Positions 52,889-58,919 of a DNA stretch of 64,000 bases are shown here, piece after piece. Made by a program: the position numbers and the translations under genes. The stretch spans positions 32,001 through 96,000 of IMG/VR virus record IMGVR_UViG_3300014000_000001. One strand, 5' to 3'. This DNA comes from a virus (Duplodnaviria; Caudoviricetes). How positions within the stretch are numbered: position 1 is the stretch's first letter; every line of letters begins with the position of its first letter. Under the pieces are notes generated by a model that saw only the letters and a list, made by a program, of their open reading frames with translations, did no database searches and was not told the DNA's origin.

Positions 52889-53776
52889 ATGTTTCGTGTT
52901 AAATTAGTGGATTCACGTTTTCATGATAATGTAATCATTCAAGAAATTGATGAATTCATTTCAAGCATCCCTAAAGAACAAATTGCTTACGATTTACGTG
53001 CAGAGCAAACTCAATCCATGTTACAGGTGTTTCGTCTACTACATAAACTCTTTAAAGATCGTTTTAAAGAAGAACAAGTTGTGAATGAGATTTACCAGTT
53101 TAAAGCAGGTATAGGTATTGATCCACACTATCATGTGTTTCATTTAAGTGCAGGTAAGAAACTAACCCAACATAATGTAGCGTATTTAAAACCAAGTAAA
53201 GCAACCTCCTTTAACTATCTATTTAAAGATAAGAGCATTACTTTGTTCTTTAGCCCTAAACTCTACCCTTCTGATAATCGCACCTATATCTTTACCCCAC
53301 CTTCGATGTCAATCCGTAACATTGTGCACGGTAATGTGTTATTCAAGCAGATTTGGGCAAAGCGTAAAGTGAACGATACTAAAGCCATTTGGTTGATGCG
53401 ACCAGATGACATTAAATTTACTATCAAGACCTTAGTTGATCAACTATATGTAGATGTTTGTACTTTTCGTGGAACTCCAGCTAGAGAACTAAAAGCTCAC
53501 CAATATGCATACATCACCGAGAACATCCTTAAACGCGCGTTACAGCTATTCTCTTATATTCATGTCTATAACAACGTAGAAGCCAAAGATATTAAGCTAG
53601 TGCGTTTAGATTCGCATCTGCGCGCAGAATACTTCGATGTCACCTACAATGCTTTTAACCGTGATGGCGGAGCACTTGCCTTTGCCGAATGTTTATTACA
53701 GTATATTGGAATTTGGCTTGAATACATGTTCGTTGAGAACTACGGTCATTTGGCCACAACATTAAGAAAGGTATAA
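52889..53776 (+). CDS. Hypothetical protein (start moved to MFRVK)
   Basis: ACAGAGGT SD before ATG 52889. Confidence 0.8.
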   Translation: MFRVKLVDSRFHDNVIIQEIDEFISSIPKEQIAYDLRAEQTQSMLQVFRLLHKLFKDRFKEEQVVNEIYQFKAGIGIDPHYHVFHLSAGKKLTQHNVAYLKPSKATSFNYLFKDKSITLFFSPKLYPSDNRTYIFTPPSMSIRNIVHGNVLFKQIWAKRKVNDTKAIWLMRPDDIKFTIKTLVDQLYVDVCTFRGTPARELKAHQYAYITENILKRALQLFSYIHVYNNVEAKDIKLVRLDSHLRAEYFDVTYNAFNRDGGALAFAECLLQYIGIWLEYMFVENYGHLATTLRKV

Positions 53777-53780
53777 GGTT

Positions 53781-54323
53781 ATGACTAAGGTTGCTATATT
53801 GGGCGCTCCAACTGAAATCGGTAGAAGTAGTGCCATGCTTCATGCATTACAGCATGAACAAGCAGTACGTGCTACAGAGATGAAGAAACGTCGTGAGCAG
53901 ATTGGTGCTTTGCTAGAACCTCATTTAAGTTATGAGATTTTAGCTGGGTATGAGAATCTCTCACGTAAAGAGCTTAAGAAGAAAAGCAAAGAGTTTTGCT
54001 TTATTCACATGCAGATTAAAGATCTAGGCTTATCTAGATATGCAAGAACTCATAAAGGGATTAGTAATACCAACGTTGCTAAGATCTCAACTATAATGAG
54101 TTATATTTCGCATTCTAAGCAGTTTTGCGATATGGATATGGAAAAGTGTGATCAAGACTACTTTGACCTTGTACTCTCGATCTACGCAGCATTAAAGGGT
54201 ATTGGTGAGGTAATGACTAAATTCAATATCTCCTTAGCTGTTAAACAAAAGTATGTCTTCATCTCATCAGAGATTGGATTACGACTTTATTCACTTTATA
54301 TTGATCATCGCATGGATATGTGA
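53781..54323 (+). CDS. Hypothetical protein (180 aa)
   Basis: ORF contiguous with the upstream gene. Confidence 0.7.
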   Translation: MTKVAILGAPTEIGRSSAMLHALQHEQAVRATEMKKRREQIGALLEPHLSYEILAGYENLSRKELKKKSKEFCFIHMQIKDLGLSRYARTHKGISNTNVAKISTIMSYISHSKQFCDMDMEKCDQDYFDLVLSIYAALKGIGEVMTKFNISLAVKQKYVFISSEIGLRLYSLYIDHRMDM

Positions 54324-54398: not shown

Positions 54399-54914
54399 AT
54401 GTCTGTTTTATTATCAGAATTAGAATTGAATCGTTCTATCAGTAAAAACTTTAAATATAGTGAAATGTGCTTATCAGGTAAAGCACGTAGTTTAGGAATT
54501 AAGAATATTCCTACCCAGATAGAAGCTAACCATATTAAAGAATTAGTTGAGAATATCTTACAACCATTACGTGATGAGTTAGGCTTAGTGATTAAGGTTA
54601 ATTCAGGTTTTCGTAATCAGAAGGTTAATGCTTTAGTAGGTGGGGTTAAGAACTCAGCTCATCTATCAGGTTATGCAGCTGATATTCATTGTCCTGGTTA
54701 TAAGGGTGGTTCTATTAAGGAGTTATGTCTTTATATTGAACAGTTCTTAAAGAGTAAGGGTATTAAGTTTGATCAATTGATCTATGAGTATGGAGATAAG
54801 AATATCCCTACTAAAGGATGGGTTCATATTGGGATACGTGATCTAGGTGGTTATCAACGTAATGAAGTGATTACCATTAATAAGAAAGGTAAATTTAATG
54901 GTATTGTTGATTAA
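54399..54914 (+). CDS. Peptidase M15-family Zn peptidase, probable endolysin
   Basis: SGFR...N..VGG..NSAHLSGYAADI and WVHIG Zn-binding motifs. Confidence 0.9.
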   Translation: MSVLLSELELNRSISKNFKYSEMCLSGKARSLGIKNIPTQIEANHIKELVENILQPLRDELGLVIKVNSGFRNQKVNALVGGVKNSAHLSGYAADIHCPGYKGGSIKELCLYIEQFLKSKGIKFDQLIYEYGDKNIPTKGWVHIGIRDLGGYQRNEVITINKKGKFNGIVD

Positions 54915-54923
54915 GGAGTAGTT

Positions 54924-55055
54924 ATGAGTACATGGATGTTAGTGTTGCTAGTTATCGTTGGTTTAGTGTTGTTATGGTTAGGTATATTGTTTAGTTGTAT
55001 AGGATGGTATATCTATCGTAATGGTATTATTGTTTCTCCTAATTGTATTAAGTGA
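54924..55055 (+). CDS. Small membrane protein (43 aa), not in the ORF track
   Basis: TAAGGAG SD; MSTWMLVLLVIVGLVLLWLGILFSCIGWYIYRNGIIVSPNCIK. Confidence 0.7.
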   Translation: MSTWMLVLLVIVGLVLLWLGILFSCIGWYIYRNGIIVSPNCIK

Positions 55056-55062
55056 GTAAATG

Positions 55063-55090
55063 AATAGAGATAGCTTAAGCTATCTCTATT
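55063..55090. terminator. 28-bp palindromic terminator
   Basis: AATAGAGATAGCTTAAGCTATCTCTATT. Confidence 0.75.
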
Positions 55091-55186
55091 TTGTTATTAT
55101 GGTAATTTAATATTGAAGTTGACTATATTATATGTTGGGAATATTAGTTGGTTATTTAGTATTTCCAATGGGGAACATATCTCTCT

Positions 55187-55605
55187 ATATATAACGAATG
55201 AAATGAGTTATATATGCCTACAGTGGTTAGAGAAGAGCATAGCTATGAACGATAGTGAATAGGTAAATGCGATGAACTAACATGTAGAATGAGCTTACGT
55301 TACTACGTAATGAAATGGAGTAGGAATTAGTAAGCGATAGAGCATGAGCGGAGCGAATACCTTAGTCTGTAATAGATACTAACATAAGAGAATTATAACA
55401 TAAGAGCGCAGCTCTTATATATATTATATTTCATACAATAGGCAAATAATTAAAATAATAATTAAAGAGAATAAAGATTAAGAGAATGAGTACGTAAGTA
55501 AACTCATTCTTAAGTTAAGATATAGGGATAATGAATGATCCCTTTAGGAAGATCATTCTAGATAGATTAAATAACTTAGGAGAAGGGGAAACCTTTCTCC
55601 TAAGA
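55187..55605 (+). other. Non-coding array of imperfect hairpins with purine-rich loops (structured ssDNA/RNA; origin candidate)
   Basis: About nine consecutive stem-loops; caps of the type GA-AT-GAA-AT-GA, GA-AC-GATA-GT-GA, GA-GC-GGA-GC-GA; no ORF. Confidence 0.6.
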
Positions 55606-55635
55606 ATATATGCTGTTTTATGAAATTAATTTTAT

Positions 55636-55660
55636 TTTAGATATATATTATCTAAGAGAA
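55636..55660 (+). promoter_or_regulatory. Putative early promoter
   Basis: TTTAGATATATATTATCTAAGAGAA. Confidence 0.7.
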
Positions 55661-55697
55661 GATAGTTGTTAAACTTAATGTTAGATTACAGAGGTAA

Positions 55698-57917
55698 ATG
55701 AAAATGATTACACATTTTAACCATACACTTGAAAAAGCAGAAATATGGAGTGTATTAGTGGGTAAGAACTATGCTGGACTAAAAGCATTGTTTCTTAAAA
55801 ACACTGATTTGATTACTGATATTCATCGTAACTTTAATGAAAGCTTTAAGCGAATGAAGATCAGTCAATTACAATATGATCGATTGACGTTAAACTTAGA
55901 AGATCCTATAGATGCTGATCGTTTATGTAACTTCTTTAAACGTTTTACTGAAGGACCAAATAAGTTTAACCCTAAGCTGAAATGGATTAGGAAAACCAAT
56001 CAAATTAAGATTAGTGTAGATATTGAGGAAGACTACTATGAGCGTCAGCGGGTGAATTGGTGGGCGATCCTCTTTTATATCCGCTATATTGAATATCATC
56101 AAACATTCATTGATGAACTTGGACGATCTTCATCAGAAGCTTCAAAGTCGTTATTGATTGACATTCGAGCTGCAAGTAAGGGTGGTCGCTTTTTAATAAG
56201 TTATGAGGGTCAGGTGTCAGAACAAGAGTTTGATTGGATCATGGGTTATGTGAAAACTTATGGGATGGACTCTCAAATATATGCAAGCCAGATAGGGGCT
56301 AAGATTAAGAAGGAAGAGGGCCCTGAATTCATACTATGGAGTAGTGGGCGTCGATGTCGTACGCGTGTTACATGTGATGAACCTGATGTTTACGCATATT
56401 ACCAAGATATGCGTGAAGTACTTAGTATCATCTGTCGAGGGGAGTATTATAGTATCCATGGATTGGTGAACTCCCCAGCCAGGATATTATTACAAGGATT
56501 TTGTTTATTGGAGAAAAGCATTAATTCGATTTCTTATTCTCCAGATGAAGATATGGTATATCTTCGAATGAAGGAAGAGAAGCTTGCTGAAGGGATAGAG
56601 TTGATCACTACTTTTAGAGATGCGTTAGGGTTACCTTCCTTAAAGTTCGACAATGAAGAAGGGATCTTGAGTATTTCGATATCGAAAGGATCTAGTTTTA
56701 ATTACAACCATCAAATATTTAACTTAACCGTATTGCATTTATTTGCATGGTGGTTATCAATTAAAAGATCTTCAGTACCGGAAGCTTTATTCCCTATAGA
56801 GCACCCTAAACCAAGAGTATCTCGCCCAGATCTAGCTCTTGGACAACACCACACATCAAACACAGAGGTAAGTAAAATGAATTGTAATGACAAAAAACCA
56901 TTGAATGAAATTGTGATAGCATGTTTAAATGGATTGTTCTCACTAAGAGTACCACGTCGAGGGTCTCCCCTTTTAGGTGATTTAAAATCAGATTTCGATG
57001 AATTAAGACAAATGATGACATTTATCCCACCAACACCAGGGTATAGCAACATCATTGATTTGTGTAATAAGATTGAAATCGGTGAGGGTTCTGGTAAGAA
57101 TCTAATGATTGATTTTTACCCGATAGGTTTTACTAAAGATCTATTAGATAAAATTTACAAATTAATATTCGTGGAATCTGGGAAGATCGACCAAAGAGAG
57201 TTAGAGGGGGTTTTTAACTTAAGTCAATCTGTTCGACATGGGTTAGATGTAGTTAGCTTGAAAATTAATATGGGTTATATCAACTTTAAGCAAACTATCA
57301 TTGAAACAAACTTAATGATCATGTTTATTGTCATGGTTTATGATTCATATTCGAGTCGTGATCAACAACGCTCAACAAGTAGACCATTTTGGGCAGATCA
57401 ACCTAGTACTGATTCACGATACTATGATCGAGCGAGACCTTCTCGTGTTGAACGTTCTGGAGTGCGTACCGACATGGCACCTATTCGTGAGTTTGATCAA
57501 GATGCAATAGAGCTAATCACGCACCGTGCTCGCAAAATTGATATCGCGATCAAAGCCCTAATTCAGGTACTGCATGTTGAATCATTCAATAGCAATTCAG
57601 TTTCAGATGATGTTAACGATATCGTTTATGGAATTGATAACTTGTTTGAATATTTCCAACCCTATGTTGGATTCAGACGTTCATCTGAATATCCAAATGT
57701 TAAACATCGAACCTCTTTGACCGATTATATCTCGTATTGGTCACGGGTGGCAGCTAAAATCACCCAGATCATTGATCCAACGTCTAATAATCAACCAGAT
57801 GTATTTAATCTTGTCGAAATTGAGAAATGGATATTCCTCAAAGAGTTAGATATGTATGTTCACGTTATTTCATGTTTTAATGAAATTGAATCCAATGAGG
57901 AACCAAAAGATGCATGA
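55698..57917 (+). CDS. Hypothetical protein (739 aa) with a likely internal start at 56877
   Basis: ACAGAGGT SD at the 5' end and again at 56862-56869 before an in-frame ATG. Confidence 0.75.
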   Translation: MKMITHFNHTLEKAEIWSVLVGKNYAGLKALFLKNTDLITDIHRNFNESFKRMKISQLQYDRLTLNLEDPIDADRLCNFFKRFTEGPNKFNPKLKWIRKTNQIKISVDIEEDYYERQRVNWWAILFYIRYIEYHQTFIDELGRSSSEASKSLLIDIRAASKGGRFLISYEGQVSEQEFDWIMGYVKTYGMDSQIYASQIGAKIKKEEGPEFILWSSGRRCRTRVTCDEPDVYAYYQDMREVLSIICRGEYYSIHGLVNSPARILLQGFCLLEKSINSISYSPDEDMVYLRMKEEKLAEGIELITTFRDALGLPSLKFDNEEGILSISISKGSSFNYNHQIFNLTVLHLFAWWLSIKRSSVPEALFPIEHPKPRVSRPDLALGQHHTSNTEVSKMNCNDKKPLNEIVIACLNGLFSLRVPRRGSPLLGDLKSDFDELRQMMTFIPPTPGYSNIIDLCNKIEIGEGSGKNLMIDFYPIGFTKDLLDKIYKLIFVESGKIDQRELEGVFNLSQSVRHGLDVVSLKINMGYINFKQTIIETNLMIMFIVMVYDSYSSRDQQRSTSRPFWADQPSTDSRYYDRARPSRVERSGVRTDMAPIREFDQDAIELITHRARKIDIAIKALIQVLHVESFNSNSVSDDVNDIVYGIDNLFEYFQPYVGFRRSSEYPNVKHRTSLTDYISYWSRVAAKITQIIDPTSNNQPDVFNLVEIEKWIFLKELDMYVHVISCFNEIESNEEPKDA

Positions 57918-58146
57918 TTACTTTGTGTGGTTATTCAGTGTTGTAATAACCTTTGGATTGGGTGCGTTCATAGCGTACCATTTCACCTCTAAAGCTTTAA
58001 ACTCGCAACTTAAAGCGTTGCAAGATAAACATGATATATTGGCGGTGAATCATGAGCGTCTCGCTGATCGAGCTCGAATGCAATTTGAGCAAGATCAAAA
58101 AACCATTAACTTACTTAAATCAACTGAACGTAAGCGTGTTGAATAA
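57910..58146 (+). CDS. Small membrane-anchored coiled-coil protein (78 aa)
   Basis: Start overlaps the upstream gene end; YFVWLFSVVITFGLGAFIAY TM segment then a heptad-like tail. Confidence 0.65.
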   Translation: MHDYFVWLFSVVITFGLGAFIAYHFTSKALNSQLKALQDKHDILAVNHERLADRARMQFEQDQKTINLLKSTERKRVE

Positions 58147-58156
58147 GCAGCATAAA

Positions 58157-58186
58157 TAAGGGAGGAGTCCTAGGACTCCTCCCTTA
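58157..58186. terminator. 30-bp palindromic terminator
   Basis: TAAGGGAGGAGTCCTAGGACTCCTCCCTTA preceded by GCATAAA. Confidence 0.8.
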
Positions 58187-58287
58187 AGTTATTTGTGTCA
58201 ATGTAGGTGACACAAATAAAGATGAATGAGCAGTAACTCATTCATCTTCGATGAGATCTCTCTCCTACACTCGATCTGGAGAAGAGC

Positions 58288-58395
58288 ATGAAGGCAAACA
58301 AAGATATTCTTTGGCAAATCAGTATCGTCACGGCAATTGCTAAACTGATCTATTTGTCCATTAAAATCCTTATTTTAATTCATTCATTACTCTAA
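58288..58395 (+). CDS. Small hydrophobic peptide (35 aa), not in the ORF track
   Basis: GGAG SD; MKANKDILWQISIVTAIAKLIYLSIKILILIHSLL. Confidence 0.55.
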   Translation: MKANKDILWQISIVTAIAKLIYLSIKILILIHSLL

Positions 58396-58513
58396 TCGAT
58401 TTGTAGATTTGTTAAGCTTTATATGCTCTAAAAATATAAACCGACATTTATCAACAATGGAGAGATCTCATATTATATCCCTTATTTATAATTTATCATA
58501 GAGGTGTGAAAAT

Positions 58514-58636
58514 ATGTTAAATTTAATTATCTTCTTTGCAATACTCTATGCAGTTTATCGCTTAGGTTATCGTAGTGGACTTAAAGCTGGAATGAATCGA
58601 GTGGGTCCCTCTGATTATCGTAAACGAATTGATTGA
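58514..58636 (+). CDS. Small membrane protein (40 aa), not in the ORF track
   Basis: AGAGGT SD; MLNLIIFFAILYAVYRLGYRSGLKAGMNRVGPSDYRKRID. Confidence 0.65.
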   Translation: MLNLIIFFAILYAVYRLGYRSGLKAGMNRVGPSDYRKRID

Positions 58637-58919
58637 TGGATGTAAATAAACATATCAATTAATATTTATATAGCGTTTAGTGAATTGTGTAAGCAAAACG
58701 CCCATTAACCAAAACTCATTTAGGAGAAAGACCATGATTACAATGACTTAATATTTTAGTAAGTGTTTTTAAATTAATTGATGTTTCCCATTAACCCATT
58801 TTAATGAATGCAAAGATTAGCTTACTAACGCTGAACTAGAAGTAAAAAACATAGAAGATGGATAGGCCTCGCAACCTATCCATCTTAATTTATGTTGGTT
58901 TCTTTTTTGGAGAGATGAT

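Follow-up and report, generated by a model that had tools for sequence, protein, structure and literature searches.

We report that a gene-free stretch behind the lysis genes of a jumbo phage holds an array of at least nine hairpins, and on balance we read this array, as a prediction, as an orphan structured noncoding RNA (ncRNA) of about 480-510 nt made from the plus strand. The non-virion RNA polymerase (RNAP) of the phage would initiate on the G of a TATG motif (G55134 in a short upstream element, or G55101 directly behind the lysis terminator), and the transcript would open with a 14-bp hairpin that contains G.U pairs (Ha). It would then fold co-transcriptionally into at least nine local hairpins with G..A-type apical loops (GNA, GNRA) and purine-rich internal loops, and it would end at a 13-bp hairpin with a GAAA loop, just ahead of the early promoter that serves the next gene. 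An internal hairpin could give rise to a shorter form of about 290 nt. Both the transcription of this unit and the role of its RNA are what we infer here from the evidence below.

The hairpin array fills a noncoding gap behind the endolysin gene

The window, that is the whole stretch of DNA analysed (64,000 nt), corresponds to bases 32001-96000 of a single source contig of 232,790 bp, and nearly all genes of this genome lie on the plus strand. The virion RNAP subunit is about 30-31% identical to those of phiKZ-like jumbo phages; judging from this match at about 30% identity, the phage is a distant member of the nucleus-forming (phiKZ-like) group. The array fills an ORF-free gap of about 640 bases (55056-55697), one of the seven ORF-free gaps of at least 300 nt in the whole genome. 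To its left, on the plus strand, lie an endolysin gene of the M15 peptidase type (54399-54914; PHROG 894, E 2.6e-33; Pfam PF08291), which served as the anchor for locating relatives, and the last ORF of the lysis cassette, which encodes a hydrophobic peptide of 43 aa (54924-55055, from the ORF list) and is polymorphic among lineage members. To its right, also on the plus strand, follows an orphan ORF of 739 aa (55698-57917) with no Pfam match, no PHROG match and no usable Atlas match, and with no detectable family or fold.

A scan for tRNA and tmRNA genes found none, and Rfam 15 gave 0 matches at the gathering threshold over the whole window. When Rfam matches with E up to 10 were considered for positions 54900-55800, the best was RsaE, on the minus strand, with 28 bits against a threshold of 79. 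Neither blastn of the gap nor tblastn of the 739-aa ORF returned a match in the phage collection, and an exact search of viral contigs for the last hairpin of the array (H8) returned none. With the 739-aa ORF or the endolysin as the query, no close relative was found among viral contigs, and the same queries gave only matches of 32-37% identity in metagenome contigs. An alignment-based scan recovered only endolysins, at identities of 41% or less.

The gap also appears to be free of genes at the level of small peptides, as no ORF of at least 20 aa within it has a ribosome-binding site, and tblastx of the gap against the cassettes of relatives and against the rest of the genome revealed no protein-level similarity and no decayed gene. 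Two ORFs might nevertheless represent a hidden small-peptide gene or its decayed remnant, one of 20 aa (55132-55194) and one of 49 aa (55113-55262). The shorter one is hydrophobic and starts at the ATG of a conserved TATATG, and the cassette of relatives does hold small membrane-peptide genes. However, neither ORF is preceded by a Shine-Dalgarno sequence of the AGAGGT type of this phage, the same ATG in relatives meets a stop after three codons, so that the frame is not conserved, the tblastx comparison speaks against a remnant, and the two ORFs span only the first 150 nt. We consider a peptide gene highly improbable. The 20-aa ORF overlaps hairpin Ha.

The hairpins fold better than chance

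A preliminary description of this DNA had listed a series of hairpins with GNA caps and tandem G.A pairs between 55187 and 55605, and we found every one of them where it had been placed. The stretch also folds better than expected by chance, as none of 100 dinucleotide shuffles folds as well (0/100). Z-scores against dinucleotide shuffles were calculated for both strands with RNA and DNA parameter sets, and they amount to -5.85 (RNA, plus strand), -6.06 (RNA, minus strand), -7.29 (DNA, plus strand) and -6.37 (DNA, minus strand). For the genome-wide comparison a scan of perfect-stem density was combined with z-scores for each gap. The array stretch ranks sixth in the genome for perfect-stem density, and another gap (57918-58919), which contains small ORFs and adjoins the far end of the 739-aa ORF, reaches z-scores of -6.3 on the plus and -6.9 on the minus strand.

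All hairpins of the array are given here for the plus strand. The first one in the predicted transcript, Ha (55134-55169), came out of the fold as a 14-bp 5' hairpin with four G.U pairs; its first base coincides with the predicted +1, the G in the TATG at 55131-55134, and it lies just outside the stretch of the preliminary description. H1 (55187-55215) has a 9-bp stem and the apex GA-AT-GAA-AT-GA, and a TATG (55213-55216) overlaps its 3' end. H2 (55218-55287), found by the fold and by the count of tandem G.A pairs, is an arm of four nested helices with the apex GA-AC-GATA-GT-GA, and its internal loops consist only of purines which can form tandem G.A pairs. H3 (55293-55335) is seen in the fold as a two-helix arm and has a 9-nt apical word in common with H1; the genome has four copies of this word on its plus strand, two of these in the array. 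H4 (55346-55356) is the mini-hairpin GA-GC-GGA-GC-GA. H5 (55400-55418), detected by the terminator scan, has a stem of 8 bp closed by a GCA triloop, and an A/T run comes after it; its fold energy of -7.4 kcal/mol is equal on both strands, and it may act as the internal terminator that yields the RNA of about 290 nt.

The second part of the array begins with an A/T-rich spacer (55419-55481) which lies within the 400 nt of highest AT content in the genome (55357-55757, GC 25.5%). H6 (55482-55511, direct repeat D1 and fold) and H7 (55533-55558, direct repeat) are paralogues with a common outline, made of an 8-bp stem, an AA bulge, a 2-bp helix and a tetraloop, which is GUAA in H6. They differ by four mutually compensated pairs, among them the inner pairs, which read GT/AC in one against TC/GA in the other, and AC/GT against CC/GG. 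The series is closed by H8 (55575-55604), the predicted terminator of the unit, whose 13-bp stem in the fold includes one G.U pair and carries a GAAA loop.

The exact word GA-NN-GNA-NN-GA occurs twice in the array (at 55196 and 55346), alongside a variant with a tetraloop and another that lacks the GA flanks; in the whole genome the exact word is found 10 times on the plus strand and 3 times on the minus strand (13 in total). The bare NN-GNA-NN hairpin is not enriched in the array, with 4 observed against 2.6 expected. Tandem G.A pairs between helices were counted in a structure-aware manner, as G.A pairs in tandem between a 3-bp and a 2-bp helix. There are four on the plus strand and none on the minus strand (shuffle mean 0.9, P = 0.012, for a motif that was defined post hoc), and the densest 642-nt window of the genome for this feature overlaps the gap. 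The word GAATGA, direct and inverted, was observed 4 times on the plus and 2 times on the minus strand, compared with 0.29 expected. The loops of the array comprise GNRA tetraloops (GUAA, GAAA) and four GNA triloops, two of which have C-G closure. Most unpaired bases had been described as purines, and this holds, the share being 72% (A 51%, G 21%, U 23%, C 5%).

The gap has the layout of a transcription unit

In phage phiKZ, the late promoter recognised by the non-virion RNAP is a TATG motif with the G as +1, which is necessary but not sufficient (PMC4666361), and the terminator motif is a stem-loop followed by a TTAT region (PMC10914365). The left edge of our gap carries a terminator and then TATG. 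The terminator scan identified H0 (55062-55091, plus strand) as the intrinsic terminator of the lysis operon; its 13-bp stem is followed by a T-run and TTATTATG, in agreement with the phiKZ-type form, and then by TATG at 55098-55101. The form of hairpin plus TTAT(G) recurs across this genome. Sequences of the phiKZ late-promoter type are thus present at two places, 55098-55101 and 55131-55134, and both are predicted promoters. Genome-wide, TATG peaks 20-50 nt 5' of start codons and sits directly behind terminators. Usually it comes directly after the terminator hairpin and the T-run, so that terminator and late promoter seem to be fused, as in phiKZ.

The TATG at 55131-55134 ends an upstream element on the plus strand (55119-55135), a candidate promoter which is kept in relatives and for which G55134 is the predicted +1. 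As the element has a single occurrence in the 233-kb genome, it does not belong to any promoter class recognised here. It lacks the word TTACC, unlike the relatives, which carry TTACC about 20-24 nt upstream of the G of TATG.

At the right edge, a strong hairpin, TATG and an early promoter follow one another. The hairpin is H8, with TATG at 55609 and 55619 downstream of it. Compared with the phiKZ terminator its form is looser, with TATATG 3-4 nt and TTTTATG about 12 nt downstream. The 27-nt early-promoter motif of the next gene (55630-55656, plus strand) lies outside the array and was recognised as a repeated motif; the genome has 15 copies of it, every one on the plus strand and 0 on the minus strand. 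Since terminator and TATG on the left and hairpin, TATG and early promoter on the right all lie on the coding strand, the gap is, by these sequence landmarks, laid out as a transcription unit in which about 480-510 nt of hairpins take the place of a gene.

The same landmarks could belong to a passive cis element. The hairpins would then be stacked terminators, decay barriers and insulators that keep the late lysis operon apart from the early gene, and the RNA itself would be functionless. H0, H5 and H8 are indeed terminator-like, most other copies of the early-promoter motif carry a hairpin directly upstream, and hairpin-dense gaps such as 57918-58919 exist elsewhere. However, one hairpin is enough at the other early promoters, while the array has at least nine of them in 500 nt. 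Moreover, most of the inner hairpins have no T-rich or TTAT tail, and the gap itself contains the conserved upstream element with its terminal TATG. We therefore regard a purely passive element as unlikely.

Strand bias and loop types favour RNA over DNA

The fold had been described as specific to the plus strand, and this is correct in part. Over 55101-55630 the plus strand folds with -126.9 kcal/mol and the minus strand with -101.6 kcal/mol (25 better on plus), and when the hairpins were folded singly, seven of eight were at least as stable on the plus as on the minus strand. The tandem G.A pairs, too, are confined to the plus strand. However, Watson-Crick stems fold on both strands, and the z-scores of the fold are the same on both. 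The hairpins H2, H3 and H6 are more stable on the plus strand; for H2 the energies are -16.8 (plus) and -12.1 kcal/mol (minus) as RNA, and -6.5 (plus) and -2.5 kcal/mol (minus) as DNA, and for H8 they are -21.5 kcal/mol on the plus and -15.1 kcal/mol on the minus strand. Ha reaches -12.7 kcal/mol (z -5.5) as plus-strand RNA, compared with -1.9 kcal/mol as minus-strand RNA and -2.8 kcal/mol as plus-strand DNA.

Based on the dependence of Ha on G.U pairs, the strand bias, the GNRA loops, the compensated differences between H6 and H7 and the apical word common to H1 and H3, the folding models lead us to favour an array that would act as a single-stranded molecule of the plus strand, as RNA over DNA. 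Tandem G.A pairs and loops closed by G..A do not discriminate between the two, because they are stable in RNA as in DNA. The four GNA triloops are a better match for DNA than for RNA and count against the ncRNA reading; with C-G closure, such triloops are a very stable form in DNA.

The preliminary description had preferred a signal in single-stranded DNA, with an unusual ncRNA as its fallback. On this reading, or on that of a cruciform signal, plus-strand hairpins would mark an origin, a site of primosome or primase loading or a packaging site when the duplex opens. In our analysis it is the fallback that is favoured, and the DNA signal gains little support and appears distinctly unlikely. 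It can draw on the significant fold with DNA parameters on both strands, on the GNA triloops with their two C-G closures, on the repeated GAATGA word and on the position within the AT-richest 400 nt of the genome. On the other hand, Ha as DNA needs four G.T pairs and is correspondingly weak, interrupted stems of this kind would fail to extrude into cruciforms, a terminator/promoter frame on the coding strand encloses the array, and its loops include the GNRA tetraloops GUAA and GAAA. No initiator-like gene was found adjoining the array. The cumulative GC skew, which had been suggested as a check for an origin, rises almost steadily from 0 to 3793 with no inflection and does not turn at the site of the array, 87 kb into the genome. 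As a test it is weak, because transcription dominates the skew of a one-strand phage genome.

DNA replication could also be served by the transcript itself. Transcription-primed (R-loop) origins are represented by oriF/oriG of T4 and by RNA II of ColE1, and in the present case a purine-rich transcript from the TATG promoter would stay hybridised in the AT-rich stretch and prime DNA synthesis. Over 400 nt the plus strand is 63% purine, the second highest value of the genome, with 11% C, and a TATG promoter motif lies upstream of the AT-richest stretch. However, no primase, helicase or RNase H gene adjoins the array, and the GC skew is uninformative in this respect as well. We consider an origin of this type very improbable.

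Most of the array is invariant among lineage members

By exact-cluster look-ups we obtained six more assemblies of the same lineage, from independent samples. In about six sequences, the block 55056-55512 has no segregating site (0/457), whereas the three adjoining ORFs have 4-11% segregating sites, that is 21/543 in a gene of 180 aa, 26/516 in the endolysin gene and 14/132 in the 43-aa ORF, for which at least five recombinant haplotypes exist. Further right, positions 55513-55627 form two haplotypes (18/115), and the part from the promoter to the ribosome-binding site has 13/70. The invariance covers loops, spacers, promoter and hairpins alike. In haplotype B, H7 is untouched and H8 differs by two pairs that are compensated and by the deletion of one pair, likewise compensated, its stability being -21.0 versus -21.5 kcal/mol; the other changes are confined to spacers and to the H8 loop. 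Compensatory change is thus seen in H8, between haplotypes, and in H6/H7, between paralogues, with H1-H6 invariant among lineage members.

The invariance of 55056-55512 argues for a function, as far as the sequences sampled can tell, but it could also reflect a recombinational sweep. Total invariance of loops and spacers is unusual for structured RNAs, and a recent sweep or a constraint at the DNA level fits it equally well. The inclusion of loops and spacers is a point for a single-stranded DNA signal, just as the joint invariance of promoter, hairpins and spacer is a point for an R-loop origin. For a passive cis element, 457 nt without polymorphism are hard to explain by insulation alone.

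A comparable block of low polymorphism is found in coding sequence at 53200-53800, inside a gene of 309 aa, where eight sequences show 0-1 segregating sites per 100 nt; the sequence upstream of it is far more variable, and that downstream is moderately variable.

In one lineage member (L093), the same array and early promoter precede a gene of 254 aa and not the 739-aa ORF. Thus, the array is not the leader of the 739-aa ORF. We also rejected a guide-RNA or retron-like link between the two, as well as a leader link, since the ORF has its own early promoter, belongs to no detectable family or fold and is swapped in this lineage member. The exchange (L093:4304-5068) looks like a cassette swap at the promoter junction, in which the 254-aa gene replaces the 739-aa ORF and only the ribosome-binding region is altered.

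Two further differences concern another lineage member, L001. The early-promoter motif differs by about 10 substitutions in 35 nt (window 55628-55662 against L001:5397-5431) between flanks that are 100% identical. The L001 variant resembles other copies of the motif, which at the sequence level suggests gene conversion between promoter copies. In the 739-aa ORF the first approximately 1130 nt are identical to L001, followed by a drop to 42-74% nucleotide identity with indels; from this comparison, the C-terminal half of the ORF is apparently mosaic or variable.

More distant relatives carry another structured element at the locus

Through endolysin homologues we located the syntenic contigs L005, L006, L009 and L010, which are about 65-75% identical to our phage in shared genes, and the more distant syntenic contig L092, whose endolysin is 54% identical at the protein level. 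The cassette between the endolysin and a conserved pair of genes (50 aa/257 aa) is variable among these relatives, and their contigs hold no counterpart of the hairpin array. L005, L006 and L009 each carry the upstream element of 15-17 nt, ending in TATG, a single time in this cassette, and in L092 only its TATG is kept. After the TATG there is a conserved structured element of about 105 nt (L005:7647-7760, L006:7716-7828, L009:8160-8270, L092:7051-7152). It comprises a hairpin capped by cUUCGg, replaced in L092 by a GUAA-capped hairpin of other sequence, together with a long stem that includes G.U pairs. The stems of the element show changes from C-G to U-G. Downstream of it lie an early-promoter-like motif and small membrane-peptide genes. 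The element has no Rfam match, and its sequence looks clearly RNA-like.

The element of the relatives is similar to the array in its position in the cassette after the endolysin, in the early-promoter-like motif that follows and in the hairpin close to TATG. Unlike the array, it is 4-5 times shorter and GC-richer, and it is built of one capped hairpin and one long-range stem. The two do not match in sequence or structure. A covariance model of the element from L005, L006, L009 and L092 found its best match in the window on H0, with 16.3 bits and E 0.19, and nhmmer of the element against the window returned the upstream element only (E 42). It seems from these sequences that the locus carries interchangeable structured RNAs behind a shared start element.

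These relatives also bear on the two readings at the DNA level. Their locus holds an RNA-type element and not an AT-rich hairpin array, which speaks against a signal in single-stranded DNA, and the absence of the array from them would be odd for a primary origin. As for an R-loop origin, the unit of the relatives is short and has no comparable AT-rich tract after it.

Comparison with known systems and significance

Candidate ncRNAs of the nucleus-forming jumbo phages phiKZ and 201phi2-1 are already known (Gerovac 2021, PMC8545117; Putzeys 2024, PMC10914365; PMC11512511). Like the array, they are noncoding, highly structured and intergenic, and they are bounded by phage promoters and hairpin terminators. 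They differ in being about 90-250 nt long, mostly derived from 5' or 3' UTRs and backed by sequencing and Northern blots, whereas the RNA of the array is predicted to be about 480-510 nt long and to stand by itself, and it has no sequence in common with them. Taken as an ncRNA, the array is a new and unusually large example of this known class of jumbo-phage ncRNAs and not a new class.

As for what the RNA might do, our tentative best guess, based on the repeated, similar purine-rich apical modules, is that it may work in trans by binding a protein, with the RNA serving as platform, sponge or scaffold for this RNA-binding protein. A role in cis, in processive antitermination or in insulating the late lysis genes from the early gene, is about equally possible. 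CsrB/RsmZ and CrcZ are multi-hairpin RNAs that act as protein sponges and are defined by a GGA loop motif. With these the array has in common several hairpins of the same shape with differing stems and repeated purine-rich apical motifs. However, GGA is not enriched in the array (9 observed versus 8.1 expected, P = 0.41), and a sponge RNA of the Csr/Rsm type was rejected on this ground.

On the DNA side, the initiation signals of ssDNA phages and plasmids, hairpin origins and the hairpin promoters of the N4 virion RNAP act on DNA that is single-stranded or has been extruded from a supercoiled molecule. The short stems and three-base, purine-containing loops of the ssDNA-phage and plasmid signals and of the N4 promoters are also those of the array, and the function of these systems is strand-specific. 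The array differs from them in belonging to a dsDNA jumbo phage with multisubunit RNAPs and a linear early-promoter motif, and in having key hairpins that depend on G.U pairs. No defined origin of a chimallivirus is described in a jumbo-phage review of 2026 (PMC13282480) or in the literature we searched. If a reading at the DNA level were true, the array would mark a candidate origin, with none described in this literature for the phage family, and if it were an R-loop origin, no origin of a chimallivirus would have been defined before it.

The catalogue of jumbo-phage ncRNAs is only beginning, and its known members are short and mostly UTR-derived, none of them with an assigned function. If the reading as a plus-strand ncRNA is true, an RNA of about 480 nt that is kept letter for letter in the sampled lineage members would be unusually large and constrained. 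It would stay constant next to variable genes and in spite of an exchange of the gene downstream. Since related phages place different structured RNAs behind what seems to be the same promoter element, the locus behind the endolysin may be a site for variable RNA cargo.
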